From Chitinivibrionales bacterium (lineage in GTDB: Bacteria; Fibrobacterota; Chitinivibrionia; Chitinivibrionales; WJKA01): a stretch of DNA of 64,000 bases. Where the stretch lies: the NCBI GenBank assembly GCA_038247415.1, contig JBBRUX010000002.1:1-64000 (forward strand). The letters run 5' to 3'. Within the stretch, counting starts at the first letter, position 1. Every line of letters starts with the position of its first letter. A program made the position numbers and the translations under genes. The notes beneath the pieces are model-generated. The model did not search any database, was not told the origin of the DNA, and worked only from the letters and a program-made list of their open reading frames with translations. Of the stretch, positions 16,532 through 48,996 are shown piece by piece.

Positions 16532-17899
16532 ATGCGGCCATTTATCGCAAATGCAAAAATCGAAGACAAAATACTCTCCGATTACGCCCACAAAGTTACT
16601 CACAACAACACGATCGATTCGAGCCTCTTTACTAAATATAATGTCAAGCGTGGGCTTCGCAATGCAGATGGCACGGGCGTTCTTGTTGGCCTTACCACCG
16701 TTGGTGAAGTGCATGGCTACGTCTTTGACGAAAACGAGAAGCGTGCCGTAGAGGGCCGTTTGCGCTATCATGGTATAGAAATAGAAGACCTTGTAGAAGG
16801 TTTTCAAAAAGAAAAACGTTTTGGATTTCACGAAACCGCGTATCTTTTATTGTTTGGTGAATTGCCAACGCTATCGGAACTACAAGCCTTTGACGATCTC
16901 CTCGATTCGCAACGAGATCTGCCTGAAGGCTTTACCGAAAACATGATTCTTAAAGCACCTTCACCCGATGTAATGAACAAACTTGCACGAGCGGTTTTGG
17001 CATCGTATTCCTACGATGAAAATCCTGATGATATTAGCTTAACCAATATGCTTAGGCAATGCATCGAGCTCATTGCCCGTTTCCCTACCATGGCAGCTTA
17101 CGGCTATCAGGCAAAACGGCATTACTACGATAATAACAGCTTGTATATTCATAGGCCTGCCACGGGAAAAAATACAGCCGGGAACTTTTTGCAAATGATT
17201 CGTCCGGATATGAGCTATACCCCACTGGAAGCCGAACTTCTTGATCTGGCGCTTGTCCTCCATGCTGAGCACGGTGGCGGAAACAATAGCACCTTTGCCG
17301 TGCATGTTGTATCATCTTCCGATACCGACACCTACTCGGCCATTGCATCGGCTCTTGGTAGCCTTAAGGGACCTAAACACGGTGGTGCAAATGTTAAGGT
17401 TGTGCAAATGATGAACGATATGAAATCGAACCTTTCCGACTATTCAAACGAAAAAGCCATCGAAGATTATTTGGCTGGCCTTGTGCGCAAAGAACAGTTC
17501 GACAAAAAAGGTCTTATTTACGGTATGGGACATGCGGTATACACGGTATCCGATCCCCGTGCAATTATTTTGCGAGAAAAAGCAATGGAACTTGCAAAAG
17601 AAAAAGGACGCACCGAAGAGTTCGAATTTTATAAGCTCGTTGAAAAATGCGCCCATCATATTCTTTGCGATATGAAGAGTGGCAAGCAAATTGCCACCAA
17701 CGTCGACTTCTACTCTGGGCTTGTTTACGATATGCTCAATATTCCGCCAGAACTGTATACGCCTATCTTTGCAATTTCCCGTATGGCCGGATGGGCTGCC
17801 CATCGCATAGAGGAAAATGTATCTGGGGGTAGAATTATACGCCCTGCTTATAAGAGCGTTTCGGGAGTGTTGCCCTATATTCCAGGGCATGAAAGATAA
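16532..17899 (+). CDS. gltA: Citrate synthase
   Basis: LHAEHGGGNNST, GPKHGGAN, GMGHAVY..SDPR and NVDFYSG motifs. Confidence 0.93.
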   Translation: MRPFIANAKIEDKILSDYAHKVTHNNTIDSSLFTKYNVKRGLRNADGTGVLVGLTTVGEVHGYVFDENEKRAVEGRLRYHGIEIEDLVEGFQKEKRFGFHETAYLLLFGELPTLSELQAFDDLLDSQRDLPEGFTENMILKAPSPDVMNKLARAVLASYSYDENPDDISLTNMLRQCIELIARFPTMAAYGYQAKRHYYDNNSLYIHRPATGKNTAGNFLQMIRPDMSYTPLEAELLDLALVLHAEHGGGNNSTFAVHVVSSSDTDTYSAIASALGSLKGPKHGGANVKVVQMMNDMKSNLSDYSNEKAIEDYLAGLVRKEQFDKKGLIYGMGHAVYTVSDPRAIILREKAMELAKEKGRTEEFEFYKLVEKCAHHILCDMKSGKQIATNVDFYSGLVYDMLNIPPELYTPIFAISRMAGWAAHRIEENVSGGRIIRPAYKSVSGVLPYIPGHER

Positions 17900-26160: not shown

Positions 26161-27297
26161 ATGGCCACACTTGTTTTAAGTATATCGGCGCTCTATCTAG
26201 GAATAACGCTTCTGTTATTACGCGGCCTTTTAAAAACCGCAAAAACAACTCAGCATAAACCCTTCCAGCATTCTTTTTCGATTGTTATTGCTGCCCATAA
26301 CGAAGAAGAAACCATTGTCGATTGTCTCAATTCGGTTTGTAATCAAACTATTAACGCGAGCAGATTTGAAGTCATCGTTGTAAACGATCGCTCCACCGAT
26401 GCCACGGCACAACGCATAGCAGAATGTATGCTTAGGTTTCCTAACCTCTGCACCATATCCATCACCCATACAGAAAAAACTATTGCTCCTAAAAAGCATG
26501 CTGTTCTAAAAGGGATTGCCGCTGCCCATAATCCAATAATTGTATTTACCGATGCAGATTGCAGAGTTCCAGCTACCTGGCTTGTAAGCATTGACACGTG
26601 CTTAGCTCCAGAAGTCATGCTTATGCAAGGCATAACCAAACATGTGCAATTGCCCTCAATGAATCCGGTTTTTTTTAGGATGCAAGCTCTTGATTTTTGT
26701 TCTCATGGCATAATTGCTGCTGCTGGTATAGGATGCAGTATTCCCATCAACAGCAATGCCAATAACATGGCATTTAGAAAAAGCGCCTTTGATACCATAG
26801 GCGGCTATGGTGGAAACGAAAAAGTTGTTCTTGGGGATGATGATTTACTCGTGCAAAAGATTTCTTCTTTGGGGAAAAAGGCACTTTTGTTTAATACCGA
26901 TCCTTCGGGCAGTGTTGTAACACTTCCAACTAAAACAATAGGGGAACTTTTTGAGCAACGCAAAAAATGGGGTTCTGTAGCGGTTCATTATGGTCCTCAA
27001 CAGCTTGCGCTGCTCGGAACGATTTTTTGTTTTTATGCGCTTTTAGCTTTTTTACTTATCGCATCTATTGTATATCCTGCTTGGATAATTTGGGCCTTTT
27101 GTATGCTTGGCGTAAAAGTACTCGGCGAATTATTTCTTTTATGGCCCGGCACAAAAATATTTAATGCACAAGATTTACGAGCAGTCATTATTCCTTCATC
27201 GATTTTGCATTTGCCAATGGTGCTCATAGCAGTAGTTATGGGTACGTTTTTTAAATTCGATTGGAAAGGTCAGAAATTCAAAAGAACTCTTAAGTGA
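26161..27297 (+). CDS. Glycosyltransferase family 2 (membrane)
   Basis: IAAHNEE, NDRSTD, FTDADC, GDDD and QRKKW motifs. Confidence 0.9.
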   Translation: MATLVLSISALYLGITLLLLRGLLKTAKTTQHKPFQHSFSIVIAAHNEEETIVDCLNSVCNQTINASRFEVIVVNDRSTDATAQRIAECMLRFPNLCTISITHTEKTIAPKKHAVLKGIAAAHNPIIVFTDADCRVPATWLVSIDTCLAPEVMLMQGITKHVQLPSMNPVFFRMQALDFCSHGIIAAAGIGCSIPINSNANNMAFRKSAFDTIGGYGGNEKVVLGDDDLLVQKISSLGKKALLFNTDPSGSVVTLPTKTIGELFEQRKKWGSVAVHYGPQQLALLGTIFCFYALLAFLLIASIVYPAWIIWAFCMLGVKVLGELFLLWPGTKIFNAQDLRAVIIPSSILHLPMVLIAVVMGTFFKFDWKGQKFKRTLK

Positions 27298-38820: not shown

Positions 38821-40341
38821 TTATTTCTTGGCAACAGCAGGGATTTTTACACCCTTTGGTATTCCCTTGAAACCAGTAACAACAGTCTTGATTCCCGCAT
38901 CATTCATTTCCTCTTCGGCGCGAATGAGTGGGTTATAGTTCTGAAGGTTGCGTTCGCCATTAGGAGCGCCAGCCTTAAACCATACGCGAGGCGATACCAT
39001 ACCGTACATAAGAGGAAGATACGGCAAAAATTCCGATGATCCTTCTGTTGATCGATGCGAGAAGAAAGCAGAAAAGCCACCCTTGGCAATATTTTCGAGC
39101 GCAGCTTCTAACGAAGCAACGCCAATTGCTTTGCAATCTGCAACGACCTTAGCAAGATCACCACGAGCATCCAAAAATGATTTGACAACCTTAGCATCTG
39201 CAACACCAAGGGTAATTTCGGAAGCTAAACGAGTTTCGGTAAACGTTCCTGCCTGGTTAAGCTTAATAAGAACGGCATTTCCTGCACGATCCTTACGATC
39301 TTTACCGCACAAAAATGGAATAACATAGCGCATTTGAGTAACTGCTAAATCGTCGAGAACAATTTGAACGCGATCACCAAAACGAGCATTCATAAGCTTA
39401 TGTGCTTCTACGTCATTTTCGGAACCAGGATCTTCCATGGTAACGAAATTTGGTGCACTATTAACAACTTTTCCATCAAAATCGATAAGTTCTTCGCGGC
39501 TTTTTTCGCCAAGACCAGAAAAGCGCATATTGTAACGACCAGCTTTAATGAGCTCTTCGCCTTTTTGAACTTCGGAAAATGCATTATCGGTTCCGATTGC
39601 GTAATCTGTTTCTTTAAGTCCAAGCTGCTGTGCACATTCTTTAATGCGGTTAAGACCTTCGAAATTATCTTTAACAGGGAAAACAAATCCACGTTCTTTG
39701 GCTGTTCCTGTTGGTAAACCATCGCGTACCAGGTTCTTTTCGAACTGGCGGAAAAACTTTGTACCTGTGGTAAAAACACCCTTCACCGATTTTTCGTTCA
39801 TAGCAAAGAAAAACATTTCCTGAATATCTTGTTTTGTTCCAGGAACATGTTCGCCACCACATACCATATTAAACGCAATATTTGGCATGTTGAATGTTTT
39901 TTGACCCTTAGCAGCAAAAATTTCCCATGCTTTGTATCCCGACGCCTTAAGCAAGGTCTGAAAAAATACTGTTGAGGAAGCAAGAGTTGCATTGCCACCC
40001 CAGATTTTCTTATTAGGACCGGCACCCTTAACCATTGCAAGGTCAAATGCTTCACATGCACGAAGAATATCGGCAGGTGATTTAATTACAACCTTTTTTG
40101 GAAGAAGCGGGATAATGTTTTTTTCTATTGACTTAATGGCTTTATCGTTATCGATATAGATTGCTTCGTTTTCGCCATCGGAGGTTCCCTTTGCAATACC
40201 GTTGCGTTCTTCGATAGTATAGCTGTCTTTTCCTGCGTCAACGCGAGCGCTCATGACACCTTCGAGTGTGAAATTTGCATAGGACGAAAGAATTTCACGT
40301 CCTTTTAAGGTAAACTTGGAAACAACTACCTCTTTAGCCAT
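38821..40341 (-). CDS. eno: Enolase (highly divergent)
   Basis: GREI, GGEH, DIQE, TMED, LDDL, LIKLNQAGT, SHRS, FKAG and YN.LIR.EE motifs; SD GGAGG before ATG 40341. Confidence 0.82.
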   Translation of the reverse strand: MAKEVVVSKFTLKGREILSSYANFTLEGVMSARVDAGKDSYTIEERNGIAKGTSDGENEAIYIDNDKAIKSIEKNIIPLLPKKVVIKSPADILRACEAFDLAMVKGAGPNKKIWGGNATLASSTVFFQTLLKASGYKAWEIFAAKGQKTFNMPNIAFNMVCGGEHVPGTKQDIQEMFFFAMNEKSVKGVFTTGTKFFRQFEKNLVRDGLPTGTAKERGFVFPVKDNFEGLNRIKECAQQLGLKETDYAIGTDNAFSEVQKGEELIKAGRYNMRFSGLGEKSREELIDFDGKVVNSAPNFVTMEDPGSENDVEAHKLMNARFGDRVQIVLDDLAVTQMRYVIPFLCGKDRKDRAGNAVLIKLNQAGTFTETRLASEITLGVADAKVVKSFLDARGDLAKVVADCKAIGVASLEAALENIAKGGFSAFFSHRSTEGSSEFLPYLPLMYGMVSPRVWFKAGAPNGERNLQNYNPLIRAEEEMNDAGIKTVVTGFKGIPKGVKIPAVAKK

Positions 40342-40420
40342 GAGAACCTCCATTGTGTGTTATAAAAAGAAACCTTGAATTATAGCCAGTTTCAAAAAAT
40401 ACATTCCGTACGGCACCATT

Positions 40421-40449
40421 AAAAAAAGGGACTCCACTGCGGAGCCCCT
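40421..40449 (-). terminator. Intrinsic terminator closing the E1/lipoyl-FabH operon
   Basis: Minus strand AGGGGCTCCGCAGTGGAGTCCC followed by TTTTTTT. Confidence 0.8.
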
Positions 40450-40487
40450 CGTTATAGTATCTAATCAGAATCGAATACATGCAAACG

Positions 40488-41816
40488 TTACCATTCGAGG
40501 GTTATTGCCGCCGAGGTTAATCCTGCGCCTACCGTGCAAAAAACAATTTTATCGTTACGGTGCAGAAACTTTTCTATTTCTGCAAGTGCGATAGGAATTG
40601 ACGCACAGGAAGTATTTCCTACATGATCGATATTAAGGAAAAAGCGTTCGAAAGGAACACCGGACTTTTGAGCCGCAGCCTTTAAAATTCGAGCATTTGC
40701 CTGATGCGGTACAACCCAGCGAACTTCGTCTGGTAGCCACCCACTTTGAGCTATTACATCGGCAACAAGCTTTGCAAAACCGCCTGTGGCATGGCGAAAA
40801 AGTGCTTTGCCATCTAAACGAACATATGGATCTGCGGCGGTGCTATTAGCTGGAATTTCGTATCCAGGGTATTCCCGTCTGGCAAGACGCAATCCCGAAG
40901 AATCGGCAAAGAGCATCTCTTTTTTAATACGGTGTCCCTCGCTTGTGCGGGCCAGAACCGTTGCGCCTGCGCCATCACCAAAGAGGAAATAGGTATCTTT
41001 GTCTTTTTTATCGAGTAACCGTGACTGCATATCAACACCAACGCACAAAATGTTATCGGCTATACCCGCAACGAGCATTCCCTTCGCCATAGTCAATGCA
41101 TACAGCCAACCCGAACAAGCAGCGTTCAAATCGAAGCACGGCACACTTGTTATACCAAGCATCCCCTGCAAAATACATGCAGTTGACGGCATAGAAAAAT
41201 CGGGCGTATCGGTAGCAAGTACAATAGCTCCAATGTCCGAAGGCTTTAGTCCAGATTTGGCAATAGCCTCAACTGCTGCATGATATGCGAGTGTTGATGG
41301 TTTTTCGTCAATGTCTGCCCAGCGACGTTCTTTGATGCCTGTTACGCCAAAGATATACTCTTCGGTAATATCGGGAAATTCTTTGAGAAGATCGGCATTC
41401 GTTACAACTCGTTTTGGCAAATACGAACCAATGCCAAGTAAACTAACTTCGGTATTAAAACCCAATGAGGCAGCAGCTGGTTTTGGTTGCGCTTTTGGCG
41501 CTACGGGCTCTTGCGGAGCTGCTTCTGGTTGAGTAGCTTTTGGAGCTGTTGCCAAAAATGCTGCGTCGCTCGTTTGAATTTCGATAACGGGCGTTTCAAA
41601 GGAAACCGTGGCACTTGCAGCTTCAAGAATGCGAACAACAACACCTGCAGCCGGAGCTTCAAATTGAAATGTTGATTTTGCGCTTTCTGCTTCTGCTAAA
41701 ACCGCACCCTTTACAAAGGTATCTCCCGGTTTAACGTTCCACGAAATAATTGTGGCTTCTGTTTCAGCTGCTGCTTGCGCTGGCAGTGATAGTGTTGTCG
41801 TAATCATGTGACTCAC
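40488..41816 (-). CDS. fabH: Lipoyl domain - 3-oxoacyl-ACP synthase III (FabH) fusion
   Basis: N-terminal W.VKPGD.F.KG..LAEAESAKS...EAP..G (lipoyl Lys); Ala/Pro linker; KAS III triad AACSG, PHQAN, GNTS. Confidence 0.9.
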   Translation of the reverse strand: MSHMITTTLSLPAQAAAETEATIISWNVKPGDTFVKGAVLAEAESAKSTFQFEAPAAGVVVRILEAASATVSFETPVIEIQTSDAAFLATAPKATQPEAAPQEPVAPKAQPKPAAASLGFNTEVSLLGIGSYLPKRVVTNADLLKEFPDITEEYIFGVTGIKERRWADIDEKPSTLAYHAAVEAIAKSGLKPSDIGAIVLATDTPDFSMPSTACILQGMLGITSVPCFDLNAACSGWLYALTMAKGMLVAGIADNILCVGVDMQSRLLDKKDKDTYFLFGDGAGATVLARTSEGHRIKKEMLFADSSGLRLARREYPGYEIPANSTAADPYVRLDGKALFRHATGGFAKLVADVIAQSGWLPDEVRWVVPHQANARILKAAAQKSGVPFERFFLNIDHVGNTSCASIPIALAEIEKFLHRNDKIVFCTVGAGLTSAAITLEW

Positions 41817-43888
41817 CGTAATTCTCCCATCATGGAGGTAATAGCTTCGCGAATAGTATCGATATTAGGCAAATATTGTTTTTCGAGTTCAGGTGCAAAA
41901 GGAACTGGAATATCGGGGGCGCCAATGAGACGTGGCGCTGTTTTAAGTGAAGAAAATGCCTCTTCAACAATTTTTGCAGAGAGCGTTGCCCCAATTCCCG
42001 CAGTTACCCCAGCTTCTTGAACAATTAAAAGGCGTCCTGTTTTGCGAACCGATGCAATGAGGGGTTCCAAATCAAAAGGATTTAAAATAAATGGGTTCCA
42101 GATATCCATCGAATATTTTAGCGTTGATGCCAAAGTTTGTACATGTTTAAGCATTGCGCCAAAACCAATAATGGTGATATCCGACCCCGTCGAGTACGAT
42201 CGAGATTTAAAAACATTTGAAACATCGCCATCAAAGGAGATATCACCCGTGCTTGAGCCATACAGCAATTTATGCTCGAACACCAAGCATGGGTTTGGAT
42301 CGTAAAATCCTGCCACAAGCGCTTCGAACGTTTCTTGTGGTGTAAATGGATACAAAAGTTTAAGACCAGGAAAACGAGACCAGAGCCCATCAAATTCTGC
42401 CGAATGAAAAGCACCAAGCGTTACGCCCCCACCACAGGGGAACCGGTATAATATTTGAGCTCCTTGATGGGCTCTAAAAAACCAGGTTCCCGCATTGAGA
42501 CCAATTTGTGTAACGGCCTCAGTTCCAAAATCGGCAAATTGAAATTCTATAATAGGCTTGGCACCACATTGCGATGCCCCAAGCGCAAAACCGGCAATTC
42601 CCGCTTCGGCAATGGGCATATCCATAACGCGATGTTCACCAAATTTCTCGAATAATCCCTTGCATGTTTTAAAAGCAGACCCATACGGCCCAATGTCTTC
42701 GCCAAGCAAGAGTGCCGACGGTTCGTTTGAGAGGATATATGAAAGTGCCTGAGTAACAGCGGTATTATTTTTAGCTTTTGTTTCGGCAAATGGCTTAAGC
42801 TTTGGTATTTCTGACGAGGCAAACACTTTAATTGACGACAGTGGAAAGGTTGGTCGTCCTAATTGAGTTGCCCGACCACACGCTTCGGTTACAAGATCAC
42901 GTGCAGAAGCTTCGAGAGCATCGATATCGGCAGCACTCATTGACAATTCGGTTTCGAGCACACTACGCGCCCGTGCAATTGGTTCACGCGTCATCCAAAT
43001 GGTTCGTTCGGCTTCGGTTACATATTCGGCATTATCGTATACTGCATGACCTGCAAGTCGAAGCGTTTGAGATTCGAGAATATAAGGTTTGGATGTTTCC
43101 TTCATGATGTCAAGAGCATCGCACACCGACAAATACACGGCCCATGGGTCACATCCGTCAACCGTTTTGCCCAAAATGCCATACCCTAGTGCCCTATCGG
43201 ATAAATTGGCACAATTATACTGGTATCGTGTTGGGGTTGAATAGGCATAATGGTTGTTTTCGATAAGAAAAAGAACGGGAATGTTGCGCACCGAAGCAAT
43301 ATTAACGGACTCGTGAAAATCCCCCGTTGATGTTCCACCATCACCAATAACGGCGCAACCATATACCTCTTCGTTTGCTTGACGAGCGGCATATACGCCA
43401 CCAACAACCAAGGCCAACATATCACCTAAATGGCTTATCATAGGAAAGCGGCGCATGGGCACATTTCCATGATGCACATTGCCTTCTCGCGCATGAGTTA
43501 TTGAACCCTCATTCGCCAAATACTGACAAAAGAGCGCAAAGAGATCGGCGCCTTGCATAACATGCGCACACAAATCGCGATGCAAAAAAGAGAGAACATC
43601 TTTACCAGGGCGAAACGGCAACCCCAGACCAATATTTGTTGCCTCGTTGCCCATACAGGGAATAACTGTACCGCGCGCTTTTCCCTGTCGATACAGCATA
43701 ATAGCTGCATCATCAAATGCACGTGACAAAAGCATATAATGATACGCTAAAGGATAAAACGCTTCGCGAGACATCCGATGAGGATACCGAATAAGCGTAT
43801 CTGGAGGATATAATCTCGATAATTCCGAAATAAGAGACCCCTTTACCAATAAAGTGCTTATTTGTTGAATGCGAAAATTGCGCAGCAC
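41813..43888 (-). CDS. 2-oxoacid dehydrogenase E1, alpha and beta subunits fused (branched-chain-like)
   Basis: ThDP motif GDGGTSTG...ENNHYA; RLAGH; beta part GEDIG, PIAE, EFQFADF, FHS, FEHK; start uncertain (ATG 43774 alternative). Confidence 0.92.
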   Translation of the reverse strand: MLRNFRIQQISTLLVKGSLISELSRLYPPDTLIRYPHRMSREAFYPLAYHYMLLSRAFDDAAIMLYRQGKARGTVIPCMGNEATNIGLGLPFRPGKDVLSFLHRDLCAHVMQGADLFALFCQYLANEGSITHAREGNVHHGNVPMRRFPMISHLGDMLALVVGGVYAARQANEEVYGCAVIGDGGTSTGDFHESVNIASVRNIPVLFLIENNHYAYSTPTRYQYNCANLSDRALGYGILGKTVDGCDPWAVYLSVCDALDIMKETSKPYILESQTLRLAGHAVYDNAEYVTEAERTIWMTREPIARARSVLETELSMSAADIDALEASARDLVTEACGRATQLGRPTFPLSSIKVFASSEIPKLKPFAETKAKNNTAVTQALSYILSNEPSALLLGEDIGPYGSAFKTCKGLFEKFGEHRVMDMPIAEAGIAGFALGASQCGAKPIIEFQFADFGTEAVTQIGLNAGTWFFRAHQGAQILYRFPCGGGVTLGAFHSAEFDGLWSRFPGLKLLYPFTPQETFEALVAGFYDPNPCLVFEHKLLYGSSTGDISFDGDVSNVFKSRSYSTGSDITIIGFGAMLKHVQTLASTLKYSMDIWNPFILNPFDLEPLIASVRKTGRLLIVQEAGVTAGIGATLSAKIVEEAFSSLKTAPRLIGAPDIPVPFAPELEKQYLPNIDTIREAITSMMGELR

Positions 43889-44089
43889 TCAAGATCTGAT
43901 GCTTCCCCGTGGAACCGCATAAGCACAGGCTTTGAAAATAAGTCATTGCGATCGCTACGGAAAGGATGATTTAGGTTAAAAATGTGTTAGGAATCTAAAA
44001 CAGAGTAAGAATTTGGAAGAAGGGCTCTCTTTGGATTATTTTTAATTTCCTTTAAAGTGCCGATATTCTAATCTATATGTATTGGTCGA

Positions 44090-45361
44090 ATGCCTCTCAA
44101 AAGAGCGTATCACCAAAAATATCGGAATTATCTTAATTGTGAGGAGGATAGCCTGCTACAGCTCTTACTTGGCCCAACACTTATCACCAAAGCTCTTTTT
44201 ATCGTTGCGGTTGGTTTAACCGGCGCATTGTTTGTTTTTTCTGCCTTTACCGTGCTCTATCACCGATTTATCTACACGAGATCTGTTGTCCGCCGCTATA
44301 AAGGTCCGTATACACCTCGTTGCACCATTGTATTGCCCTGCAAAGGAATACCAAAAAATCTCGATCGCAATCTTAATGCATTTCTTTCGCAAGATTATCC
44401 CAATTACGAATTCATTTTTACGGTTGAAAATGAAAATGATCCTGCATACGCAATCATAAAAGCTGCCATCGCCAATAAACCTCAGGCTAAGATCGTCGTG
44501 GCTGGTTTAGCAACAACGTGTTGCCAAAAAAACAAGAATATGCTCGCAGCACTCGAAATCGCTACGAATCCAGAAGTGTACGTTTTTGCCGACGCCGACA
44601 TAGGACCAACAGCATCATGGCTTAAAGACCTTGTACTGCCCCTTTCAGATCCTAAAACAACCATTGCCACCGGGTTTCGATGGCTTATGCCAGAAAAAGG
44701 AACGCTTGCCGAACTCGTTCACTTTTATATGAATGCATTTTTATATATACTGTATAGCCCAACCTCATACATGGGACAAGTACATGCCTGGGGTGGATCT
44801 ATGGCTATTCGTAAAGCCGATTTCGAACGATGTGGTATTGCCAAGCGTTGGGCAGAAACCGCCGTCGATGATAGCAGCATGTGTGAAGAAGTGCTCAAAC
44901 ACAAAGGCACTTCGGTGCTTGTTCCCCTTTGTATCACGCAGACAAATGATCTCATTCAAACCGTTGGTGGCGCCATAACATGGTTTGAGCGTCAAATGAT
45001 GTATTTGAAATTATACCAAACCCCTATCTGGATTGGTACCGTTCCCGTGATACTTTTTGGTATGGCCATGCAATTATGGCTCCCCATCGCGCTTATTCTC
45101 TCCTTTACCATGCATATTTCATTTTGGGATATCGGTGGAGGCGCAGCACTATCATTTTATATTTGTAAATTTGCCGGCGACATGCTTTTTCCCCTTATTG
45201 GAAAAACACCGCGATGGTTCCTGTTCTACTGCACCCAGCCAGTTTTATTATGGTGCTTTTTGGTGGCATGCTTTAGAACCATATTTACCAATACCATAAC
45301 CTGGAGCGGCGTAAAATATCGTTGTAAATTAAACGGCGTTGTCACAAGCGTGCGGAGATAA
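44090..45361 (+). CDS. GT2/GT21 (ceramide glucosyltransferase/HpnI-like) glycosyltransferase
   Basis: LPCKG, QDYPNYE, KNKN, FADAD, WGGSMA, VDD and ITWSG..Y motifs; start may be CTG 44153 after GAGGAGG. Confidence 0.82.
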   Translation: MPLKRAYHQKYRNYLNCEEDSLLQLLLGPTLITKALFIVAVGLTGALFVFSAFTVLYHRFIYTRSVVRRYKGPYTPRCTIVLPCKGIPKNLDRNLNAFLSQDYPNYEFIFTVENENDPAYAIIKAAIANKPQAKIVVAGLATTCCQKNKNMLAALEIATNPEVYVFADADIGPTASWLKDLVLPLSDPKTTIATGFRWLMPEKGTLAELVHFYMNAFLYILYSPTSYMGQVHAWGGSMAIRKADFERCGIAKRWAETAVDDSSMCEEVLKHKGTSVLVPLCITQTNDLIQTVGGAITWFERQMMYLKLYQTPIWIGTVPVILFGMAMQLWLPIALILSFTMHISFWDIGGGAALSFYICKFAGDMLFPLIGKTPRWFLFYCTQPVLLWCFLVACFRTIFTNTITWSGVKYRCKLNGVVTSVRR

Positions 45362-47997: not shown

Positions 47998-48996
47998 GTG
48001 TCCACATCTATGAAAAAAATCATTCAGATTTTATTAGGCATGGCAATTGGTGGCGTGGGTCTTTATTTTTTCCTGCGTGGTTTTAATGTAAAGCTTTTGG
48101 GGCAGCAACTTTTGCACACGCCCCTTCTTACCATTGTTCTTGCATCTGCACTCGGTATTGGCAGCCTTTATTTTAGGGCCCTGCGATGGCATATCATGCT
48201 TCCTGTGCTCCCTGGCACCAATAAAACCAAACTTTTTCCTATTGTTGTGATAGCGTTCATGATTAATAATATTTTACCTGCTCGCATTGGTGAAGCAGCC
48301 AGGGTTGTTATATTATGGCGACACAACAAATATCCCGTATTTATTGGTATTGGGACTTTATTACTTGAACGATTTTTTGACACTGCTTTTATTGCCCTCT
48401 TTTTTATTATTCCTGTGTTTCTTATTCCCGGACTTTCAAATTTAGCATCTTCTGCTATTCCCATTGGTATTGGCATTGGCTCAATTTCGCTTGTTGGGAT
48501 CTTATATCTTTTTATTCCTAAACGCATTAAGGCCCCGTTTAAATGGCTGTGCTACAAATTTCCTGCTGGTTTACAAACCAAACTTCTTGCAACAGGACGA
48601 GATCTCTGCGCCAGCGCCGGATGGGCATCCTCGTTTTCTTCATTAGTAACGGTTATCATCCTTTCTTTCGTTGTTGAACTTTGTTACGCTGGTATTGTTC
48701 TTGTCGTGGTGCGAGATCATGCACTCTGCACATGGCTTATGGCCCTTTTTGTGCAGGCAGTTGCATCTCTTGGAGCAGCCATTCCCCTTGCTCCTGGATA
48801 TGTTGGTACCATGGACGCAATGATGTTCTTTGCACTTGAGAAAGTTGGTATTGCGGGTGATTCGGCTCGTGCCATTGCCATTATTTTTCATGCTGCAACA
48901 TGGTTGCCAGTTACGCTTTTAGGCTTATATTACTTTTTTGCCATGGATATTAAATTTAAGGATATAACCAAGGCTAAAGACGAAATTAAAAAATGA
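47998..48996 (+). CDS. Lysylphosphatidylglycerol synthase TM / UPF0104 flippase-like protein
   Basis: RALRW, NNILPARIGE..R, ERFFD and P.APGYVG motifs. Confidence 0.88.
   Translation: MSTSMKKIIQILLGMAIGGVGLYFFLRGFNVKLLGQQLLHTPLLTIVLASALGIGSLYFRALRWHIMLPVLPGTNKTKLFPIVVIAFMINNILPARIGEAARVVILWRHNKYPVFIGIGTLLLERFFDTAFIALFFIIPVFLIPGLSNLASSAIPIGIGIGSISLVGILYLFIPKRIKAPFKWLCYKFPAGLQTKLLATGRDLCASAGWASSFSSLVTVIILSFVVELCYAGIVLVVVRDHALCTWLMALFVQAVASLGAAIPLAPGYVGTMDAMMFFALEKVGIAGDSARAIAIIFHAATWLPVTLLGLYYFFAMDIKFKDITKAKDEIKK

Follow-up and report, generated by a model that had tools for sequence, protein, structure and literature searches.

By what route does a ketosynthase receive its acyl group when it carries a lipoyl domain of its own? 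The question is raised by two adjacent genes in the DNA of a Chitinivibrionales bacterium, within positions 1 to 64,000 of contig JBBRUX010000002.1 (assembly GCA_038247415.1); this stretch of 64,000 nucleotides is referred to below as the window. One gene encodes a thiamine diphosphate (ThDP)-dependent E1 component of a 2-oxoacid dehydrogenase, with alpha and beta parts in one chain. The other, here called the fusion, encodes an N-terminal lipoyl domain, a linker and then KAS III or FabH (beta-ketoacyl-ACP synthase III; ACP, acyl carrier protein), in the position where an E2 component has its acyltransferase core. Fatty-acid synthesis is started from acyl-coenzyme A (acyl-CoA) by FabH, by decarboxylation of malonyl-ACP or by a few special ketosynthases, and in Bacillus subtilis a branched-chain 2-oxoacid dehydrogenase (Bkd; E1 alpha/beta, E2 and E3) acts first and FabH follows. 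We consider it probable, on comparative grounds, that the pair described here is a 2-oxoacid dehydrogenase-type machine in which a FabH-type ketosynthase stands in place of the E2 core and is primed directly from the lipoyl arm. An initial annotation of this DNA, made from the letters alone, had proposed that acyl-dihydrolipoamide is handed straight to the FabH cysteine; comparative evidence supports that proposal, the transfer itself being something that we infer.

Both genes lie on the minus strand, as given in the open reading frame (ORF) list of the window. E1 occupies 41813-43888, the longest ORF having 691 amino acids, and the fusion occupies 40488-41816 (442 amino acids). They overlap by the four letters GTGA (41813-41816), such that the TGA stop of E1 overlaps the GTG start of the fusion gene at 41816-41813, and a GGGAG lies about 7 nt ahead of that GTG. 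An alternative ATG start is found 9 nt further in, at 41807-41805, and is the one used by an identical database entry (P0001, 439 amino acids); judged from the layout, the two genes are translationally coupled whichever start is used. The start of E1 itself is uncertain. The GTG at 43888 is merely the first possible one, and a comparison of N-termini places the beginning of conserved sequence near residue 33 (R-Y-P-x-R-M-S-R-E), so that the ATG at residue 39 would be too late and the true start should lie upstream of residue 33. The operon ends at a strong intrinsic terminator on the same strand (40416-40450), the hairpin at 40450-40426 having 11 pairs, six of them G-C, with a T run behind it. 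The initial annotation had already recognized the overlap and the closing terminator, and both are as it described them.

It had also read the upstream gene as a fused E1 alpha-beta, and this holds: a single ORF contains PF00676 in the alpha part (residues 52-344, 42857-43735) and PF02779 (374-544) plus PF02780 (566-679) in the beta part (41852-42769). In the fusion protein, the Pfam matches are PF00364 (Biotin_lipoyl, residues 8-80, encoded at 41577-41795), PF08545 (ACP_syn_III, 228-305) and PF08541 (ACP_syn_III_C, 356-442). The lipoyl lysine, Lys47 (codon 41676-41678), stands in the motif E-S-A-K-S, without the Met-Lys-Met form, and the corresponding motif of the single-chain relatives introduced below is E-A-D-K-A. 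An Ala/Pro-rich linker follows (residues 81-122, 41451-41576), and then an intact KAS III domain (residues 123-442, 40491-41450) with Cys234 (codon 41115-41117), His371 and Asn401, again in agreement with the first description, and with Arg376. The Pfam scan found no E2 catalytic core (PF00198) in this protein, and the peripheral subunit-binding domain (PSBD, PF02817) was not detected in it at E <= 0.01. The protein scores above the NCBIfam cut-offs for FabH (TIGR00747, 296.3 against 292.1 bits; NF006829, 318.5 against 249), and the KAS III domain is 40-45% identical to solved FabHs (2ebd, 1ub7, 1hn9). Its AlphaFold2 (AF2) model has a mean predicted local distance difference test (pLDDT) of 85.3, with a beta-barrel lipoyl domain and a confident KAS III; residues 91-110 of the linker fall below 50, and in this model the linker is disordered or flexible. 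Among the homologues its length is 38-50 residues, and the Fibrobacterota fusions share a conserved stretch directly past the lipoyl domain (T82, D84). A docking prediction with a KAS III dimer (residues 120-442, two copies) and the lipoyl domain (1-85), run without controls, gave a score of 0.00 and a mark of 0.32 and counts neither way.

Biotin_lipoyl is a shared family, and the N-terminal domain has to be assigned to one cofactor or the other. Its further NCBIfam matches are all E2 or E1-beta-lipoyl proteins, none being a biotin carrier; together with the motif and the E1 partner, this makes a biotinyl carrier unlikely. The motif and the lipoylation genes of the organism (see below) would suit a lipoylated arm.

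Is the architecture real? A sample of 201 Fibrobacterota genomes (G194, an unpublished genome that lacks the fusion, is counted among them) was searched with the fusion and with E1 as queries. The fusion is present in 58 of them; 55 copies, that of the source genome included, are full length (matching from about residues 1-17 to 442, with no stops) and three are pieces cut at contig ends. An E1 orthologue of at least 51% identity occurs in 59 genomes, namely all 58 with the fusion and one more (G123, 79% complete) in which the fusion was not found. In 54 of the 58, E1 is the gene immediately upstream of the fusion and shares its strand; in the other four (G127, G133, G059, G135) the two genes are on different contigs, and a contig edge is seen for the first three. 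In one further genome (G157, locus L106 at G157:C3:420000-433000) E1 has 23 in-frame stops and the fusion is reduced to residues 169-318, a joint decay that would fit a pair working as one functional unit. The module is missing from whole groups (0/8 in f3 and 0/7 in g17), and the largest family, f10, gave 0/78 for E1. The best 120 database homologues listed all carry PF00364, PF08545 and PF08541, the closest being named Chitinispirillum alkaliphilum, Chitinivibrionales, Chitinispirillaceae and one 'Fibrobacter sp.' metagenome-assembled genome (MAG). These names, and a protein with a Fib_succ_major domain encoded in the window, place the source genome in Fibrobacterota. An assembly chimera, which the initial annotation had raised as a danger should relatives lack the fusion, is rejected on these grounds. 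The domain combination that it suggested searching for, together with its neighbourhood, is conserved and always paired with fused E1. Over 19 loci (18 relatives and the window), E1 and the fusion are the sole constant neighbours, and the genes downstream vary; the ORF caller overlooked the fusion in L093 and L094, where the genome search finds it intact.

The residues that have been kept and those that have been replaced bear most directly on what the KAS III domain does. They were counted in 119 fusion homologues, in 24 single-chain proteins and in 41 aligned E1 sequences. All 41 E1s retain the ThDP motif (G182-D183-G184...N212), R277/H281/D285, E428 and H495; we take H281 and H495 to be the active-site histidines of the alpha and beta parts. 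Lys47, Cys234, His371, Asn401 and Arg376 are invariant in 119/119 fusion homologues and in 24/24 single-chain forms, Arg376 standing at the position of Arg249 of E. coli FabH, the ACP-docking residue. A description of E. coli FabH, in the portion of PMC4606726 that deals with CoA binding, has Thr28 hydrogen-bonded to the CoA adenine, Trp32 and Arg151 stacked on it and Arg36 bound to the phosphopantetheine. The window protein has Ile150, Tyr154, Val158 and Lys273 at the positions of Thr28, Trp32, Arg36 and Arg151, respectively. Among the 119 fusion homologues the Thr28 position is Ile or Val in 109, the Trp32 position is Tyr and the Arg36 position Val in all, and the Arg151 position is Arg in 50, Met in 33, Lys in 33 and Ile in two. 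At the tunnel entrance, Ile154 has become Tyr in 108/119 and Ile155 has become Phe in 119/119 (Tyr276 and Phe277 in the window). The single-chain forms have Asp or Glu at the Trp32 position and Phe, Pro, Leu or Glu at the Arg151 position (24/24 each), and keep Arg36 in 21/24. The control was a set of stand-alone FabHs from 20 genomes of the phylum plus the source genome's own FabH, one odd row of which (L112) is probably a wrong ORF; Thr28 and Trp32 are kept in 20/21, and Arg36 and Arg151 in 21/21. Eight plain FabH representatives lacking the signature of the clade also keep all four CoA-contact residues; they were chosen by those residues and so are no independent control. Read from these alignments, the tunnel entrance is remodelled and the CoA-nucleotide contacts are replaced, and the catalytic and ACP-docking residues are retained. 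Three proteins of FabH length (P0149, P0156 and P0161; 328-378 amino acids) have no lipoyl domain and show fusion-type entrance signatures (Tyr/Val or Glu/Leu for Trp32/Arg36); they may result from gene calls that are too short, or be split versions whose lipoyl domain is a protein of its own.

These residues allow one alternative to be weighed at once. The KAS III domain might act purely as a transacylase, a non-homologous substitute for the E2 core that takes the acyl group off the lipoyl arm and delivers it, via Cys234 and with no condensation, to CoA or holo-ACP; in that case the system would amount to a conventional dehydrogenase that forms acyl-CoA or acyl-ACP, with a different fold at its centre. 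The first half-reaction of FabH is indeed a reversible thioester exchange, and KAS III occupies the exact place of the E2 core, in the PSBD-containing variants described below as well. There are also KAS III-like acyltransferases in secondary metabolism, to judge from a part of the ChlB3 paper. Nevertheless His371 and Asn401, required for nothing but malonyl decarboxylation and condensation, do not vary in either group of proteins, the fusion passes the FabH family cut-offs, and the replaced nucleotide contacts argue against CoA as the acceptor. We regard this alternative as improbable.

Relatives outside the phylum show how the parts may be arranged. ESM Atlas clusters that combine lipoyl and KAS III domains have Planctomycetota, Fibrobacterota, Spirochaetota or Verrucomicrobiota as their commonest phylum; some of the forms have an E3_binding domain and some have Transketolase_C. 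A set of 24 proteins of 1047-1223 amino acids (P0121-P0144) contains E1_dh, Transket_pyr, Transketolase_C, Biotin_lipoyl and both KAS III domains, which alignment places in the order E1 alpha, E1 beta, lipoyl, KAS III, with no E2 core. A Pfam scan of 50%-identity representatives adds a further single chain (P0206) and two proteins, P0147 and P0152, with the order lipoyl, E3_binding (PSBD), KAS III, a layout that matches the N-terminal half of an E2 with KAS III replacing the core. By domain content the family thus has three grades of fusion, namely two genes, the PSBD form and the single chain, which is what would be expected if KAS III replaces the E2 core. That the same parts occur in other phyla as lipoyl-PSBD-KAS III or as one chain argues strongly that they work together. 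A Planctomycetota MAG (G201) has an intact single-chain gene; in the Planctomycetota sample as a whole the form is patchy, occurring in 3-4 of 151 genomes with four candidates per genome scored. A search of genome contigs for related loci gave ordinary E2 lipoyl domains only, with KAS III motifs in none of the 52 ORFs checked. In a quick tree of KAS III domains (L123 left out; L112 with a branch length of 6.3), the Fibrobacterota fusions group as a single clade, with a support of 100. The databases name the proteins 'beta-ketoacyl-ACP synthase III', and the automatic Joint Genome Institute (JGI) name of the single chains is '2-oxoisovalerate dehydrogenase E1'. Many of the single chains P0121-P0144 share a motif of the type T-R-E-D-x-G-x-P-x-I-T in a linker that is otherwise variable, and E3 or E1 might dock there.

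What does the rest of the genome provide? The source assembly (3.84 Mb, 96% complete) has three E1s, namely that of the window, sucA and a pyruvate dehydrogenase (PDH)-like fused E1, and two E2 cores only, one on contig C54 and one on C45; the KAS III fusion makes up the third partner with a lipoyl domain. On C54 the order is sucCD-sucA-sucB-lpd, followed by citrate synthase. (The genome encodes citrate synthase twice, in the window at 16532-17899 on the plus strand and at G000:C54:14278-15420, beside this 2-oxoglutarate dehydrogenase cluster.) The PDH-like cluster (G000:C45:10612-15867) consists of a fused E1 alpha-beta of 822 amino acids, an E2 and an E3, and its E1 is 23% identical to that of the window. 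Each E2 therefore has its own E1 in its own cluster. A canonical plsX-fabH-fabD-fabG-acpP-fabF cluster is on C4. The initial annotation had reported no E2 core, E3 or ACP in the window, and the genome search likewise gave no match to any of them on the window's contig, their matches lying on other contigs. It had named E3, lipA/lipB/lplA and further fabH or E2 genes as worth seeking in the genome. Two lpd genes (E3), LipA and a BirA are present, with an LplA/LipB-type ligase about 24 kb from the module on the same contig (C2:67298-68077); the separate canonical fabH and the two E2 cores with their own E1s complete the answer. Its description of the operon as 'minimal' holds within the window, and fails for the system as a whole, in which E3 is very probably borrowed from elsewhere in the genome. 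Within the order, 55 of the 57 genomes with the module have an E3 match, the exceptions being G053 and G133 (68% complete).

The inventory also bears on a more conservative explanation, in which KAS III takes acyl-CoA as usual and the lipoyl domain either has a regulatory role or acts as a tether between FabH and a dehydrogenase complex, the real E2 of the latter being encoded elsewhere. The genome does have two true E2s with their E3s, and the retention of Arg151 in 50/119 homologues, as well as of Trp32 and Arg36 in one single-chain lineage, could be understood in this way. It is harder to see why such a tether should have a dedicated E1 so unlike the PDH-like one when each E2 is already served by an E1 in its cluster, why the single chains should join E1, lipoyl domain and KAS III without an E2 core, or why the lipoyl lysine should be invariant and both Trp32 and Arg36 replaced in 119/119. 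We think this explanation very unlikely.

Direct priming from the lipoyl arm would proceed as follows. The ThDP-dependent E1 would decarboxylate a 2-oxoacid and reductively acylate the lipoyl group on Lys47 of the fusion's N-terminal domain. The linker of about 40 residues would let the acyl-dihydrolipoyl arm swing into the remodelled tunnel of the attached KAS III, taking the place of the pantetheine of acyl-CoA, and the acyl group would move to Cys234 by thioester exchange. KAS III would then condense it with malonyl-ACP, using His371/Asn401 for decarboxylation and Arg376 for docking, to give a 3-oxoacyl-ACP that would enter type II fatty-acid synthesis. The dihydrolipoyl arm would be re-oxidized by an E3 encoded elsewhere in the genome, and no acyl-CoA intermediate would be formed. 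Acetyl-CoA priming would be handled in parallel by the canonical FabH of the plsX-fabH-fabD-fabG-acpP-fabF cluster, leaving the module to supply other primers, probably branched-chain ones derived from 2-oxoisovalerate, 2-oxo-3-methylvalerate or 2-oxoisocaproate.

The evidence that branched-chain 2-oxoacids are the favoured substrates is circumstantial. The module is accessory to a canonical FabH, and the genome has no third E2 for a Bkd complex. The protein that NCBI names as the KAS III of Chitinispirillum alkaliphilum has the same architecture and 62% identity. As far as the fatty-acid data of PMC4814513 extend, the phospholipid fatty acids (PLFA) of that species are dominated by anteiso-C15:0 and C16:0, with C14:0 and iso-C16:0 also present, and neither iso nor anteiso acids are among the dominant fatty acids listed there for Chitinivibrio alkaliphilus (16:0 and 16:1) and Fibrobacter succinogenes. 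The E1 comparisons are divided: the alpha part matches the branched-chain E1 alpha of Thermus thermophilus and human best, and the beta part the pyruvate E1 beta of Geobacillus stearothermophilus. All NCBIfam E1 matches fall under their cut-offs, among them those for pyruvate dehydrogenase E1 (TIGR03181, NF006667 and related: 195 against 411, 202 against 321 and 201 against 454 bits).

Several observations weigh against the proposed direct priming or the part assigned to branched-chain acids. With the best matches of alpha and beta split and all family scores below cut-off, the specificity of E1 cannot be read from its sequence, and the correlation with fatty acids rests on a single named species. 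Arg151 is retained in 50/119 fusion homologues and the single-chain lineage P0206 keeps Trp32 and Arg36, so that the loss of CoA contacts is a strong tendency and no rule; moreover, the Tyr at the Trp32 position could still stack on adenine. For G053, a 100% complete genome that carries the module, none of the 17 candidates scored (of 24) matched E3; since genomes that lack the module often have E3 too, its presence does not discriminate. The window fusion has no PSBD through which E1 and E3 might be recruited. Lastly, as regards the relation of the Fibrobacterota fusions to the single chains and the stand-alone FabHs, the KAS III tree is compatible with a single origin of the fusion as well as with several.

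A different product could also be made by the same chemistry. It has to be considered that E1, lipoyl arm and KAS III act as proposed, and that what they start is a specialized lipid or polyketide-like metabolite rather than the bulk fatty acids of the membrane. The accessory nature of the module fits, a canonical FabH being kept alongside it and many relatives doing without it. Behind the pair in relatives (L089-L105) are found radC (17/19 loci), an acyl ligase resembling FlxY of the flexirubin type (12/19, a few genes downstream), a glycosyltransferase family 2 gene, GT2-DUF2062 (10/19), and a TonB-type receptor (7/19); the ligase and the glycosyltransferase would suit a special product. So would the 12 PP-binding matches of the genome, large multi-domain proteins among them, and a cluster on contig C23 with KAS, ACP and type III polyketide synthase (PKS)-like genes. 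Yet no ACP or tailoring gene is conserved beside the pair, the operon is closed by its terminator, and the KAS III domain is nearest to housekeeping FabHs, at the 40-45% identity to solved ones given above. The genes found downstream in relatives are absent behind the window pair; radC and the FlxY-like ligase of the source genome are both on contig C70, and GT2 is on C16. A special product of this kind seems to us unlikely, to much the same degree as simple transacylation. As parts of the module, radC, the ligase, GT2-DUF2062 and the receptor are rejected, since they lie elsewhere in the source genome. The C23 cluster (G000:C23:22147-25009) brings together a KAS I/II-like gene, a small ACP and a type III PKS/chalcone-synthase-like gene, and may be of the alkylresorcinol or pigment type.

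How does direct lipoyl priming compare with systems that are already understood? The module shares with Bkd and FabH of B. subtilis an alpha/beta ThDP-dependent E1, a lipoyl arm on a flexible linker, re-oxidation by E3 and condensation with malonyl-ACP, and the proposed end result is likewise a fatty-acid primer derived from a 2-oxoacid. It differs in lacking the PF00198 core and, as proposed, the acyl-CoA intermediate, in bearing the lipoyl arm on FabH itself, in its replaced CoA-nucleotide contacts and in the fusion of E1 alpha with beta. With type II FabHs such as 2ebd, 1ub7 and 1hn9 the fusion has in common the thiolase fold, the Cys-His-Asn triad and the ACP-docking Arg; unlike them it has an N-terminal lipoyl domain and linker, an obligate pairing with E1, replacements of Thr28, Trp32, Arg36 and often Arg151, and a remodelled entrance (Tyr276, Phe277). 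The initial annotation had cited PDH-like relays of E1, lipoyl domain and KAS III in quinocarcin and naphthyridinomycin biosynthesis; the KAS III of those relays was not confirmed in the open literature. There the C2 unit reportedly passes via an E2-type acyltransferase domain to the ACP of a nonribosomal peptide synthetase (NRPS) line, with no KAS III. The likeness to the relay so described is that a ThDP enzyme loads a lipoyl arm which feeds a biosynthetic carrier rather than CoA. Unusual re-fusion of 2-oxoacid dehydrogenase modules is seen in actinobacterial OdhA, which the sections of PMC10415282 bearing on it describe as a 'two-in-one' 2-oxoglutarate dehydrogenase, in which E1 and a different catalytic domain form one protein and lipoyl or E3 functions are shared with a second complex. 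OdhA has, on the same account (PMC10415282), a true E2 succinyltransferase domain that makes succinyl-CoA, whereas in the module a ketosynthase that is not homologous to the E2 core stands in its place.

Full-text literature searches found nothing that joins a lipoyl domain to FabH or KAS III, in keeping with the initial annotator's statement that no characterization of the architecture was known. A 2-oxoacid dehydrogenase complex with a ketosynthase for its E2 core is thus probably an undescribed route. If it is confirmed, a lipoyl-primed FabH would add a CoA-independent way of committing a 2-oxoacid straight to lipid, and the 2-oxoacid dehydrogenase scaffold would prove able to exchange its E2 core for an unrelated fold. 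The branched-chain membrane lipids of some anaerobes without a classical Bkd complex could then be explained, and thousands of entries named 'beta-ketoacyl-ACP synthase III' or '2-oxoisovalerate dehydrogenase E1' would be corrected. The pair, or its single-gene form, would also offer engineers a compact part with which to make branched- or odd-chain fatty acids out of amino-acid precursors. A broader proposition, which we advance tentatively and hold at somewhat less than even chances, is that ketosynthases would have in the lipoyl-lysine arm a further type of acyl donor, the third after CoA and ACP, and that several largely anaerobic lineages (Chitinivibrionales-type Fibrobacterota, Planctomycetota, Verrucomicrobiota and allies, and Spirochaetota) would draw their iso and anteiso fatty-acid primers chiefly from this E2-less, CoA-free module.

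Some features of the surroundings may be added. Upstream of E1, a weak sigma-70-like promoter match on the minus strand (44035-44063) agrees with 9 of 12 consensus positions; it is a consensus match only, and such sites are no commoner than in shuffled controls. Directly downstream of the operon, 38821-40353 (minus strand) encodes a 510-amino-acid protein of the enolase superfamily with a long C-terminal extension; it scores far under the enolase cut-off (131 against 300 bits) and may be no true enolase. Divergent from E1 is a gene for a GT21/HpnI-like glycosyltransferase (44090-45361, plus strand), and a second GT2/GT21-like protein (26161-27297) and an LPG_synthase_TM protein (47998-48996) are also encoded on the plus strand near the operon, all three genes being of a lipid- or envelope-modifying type.

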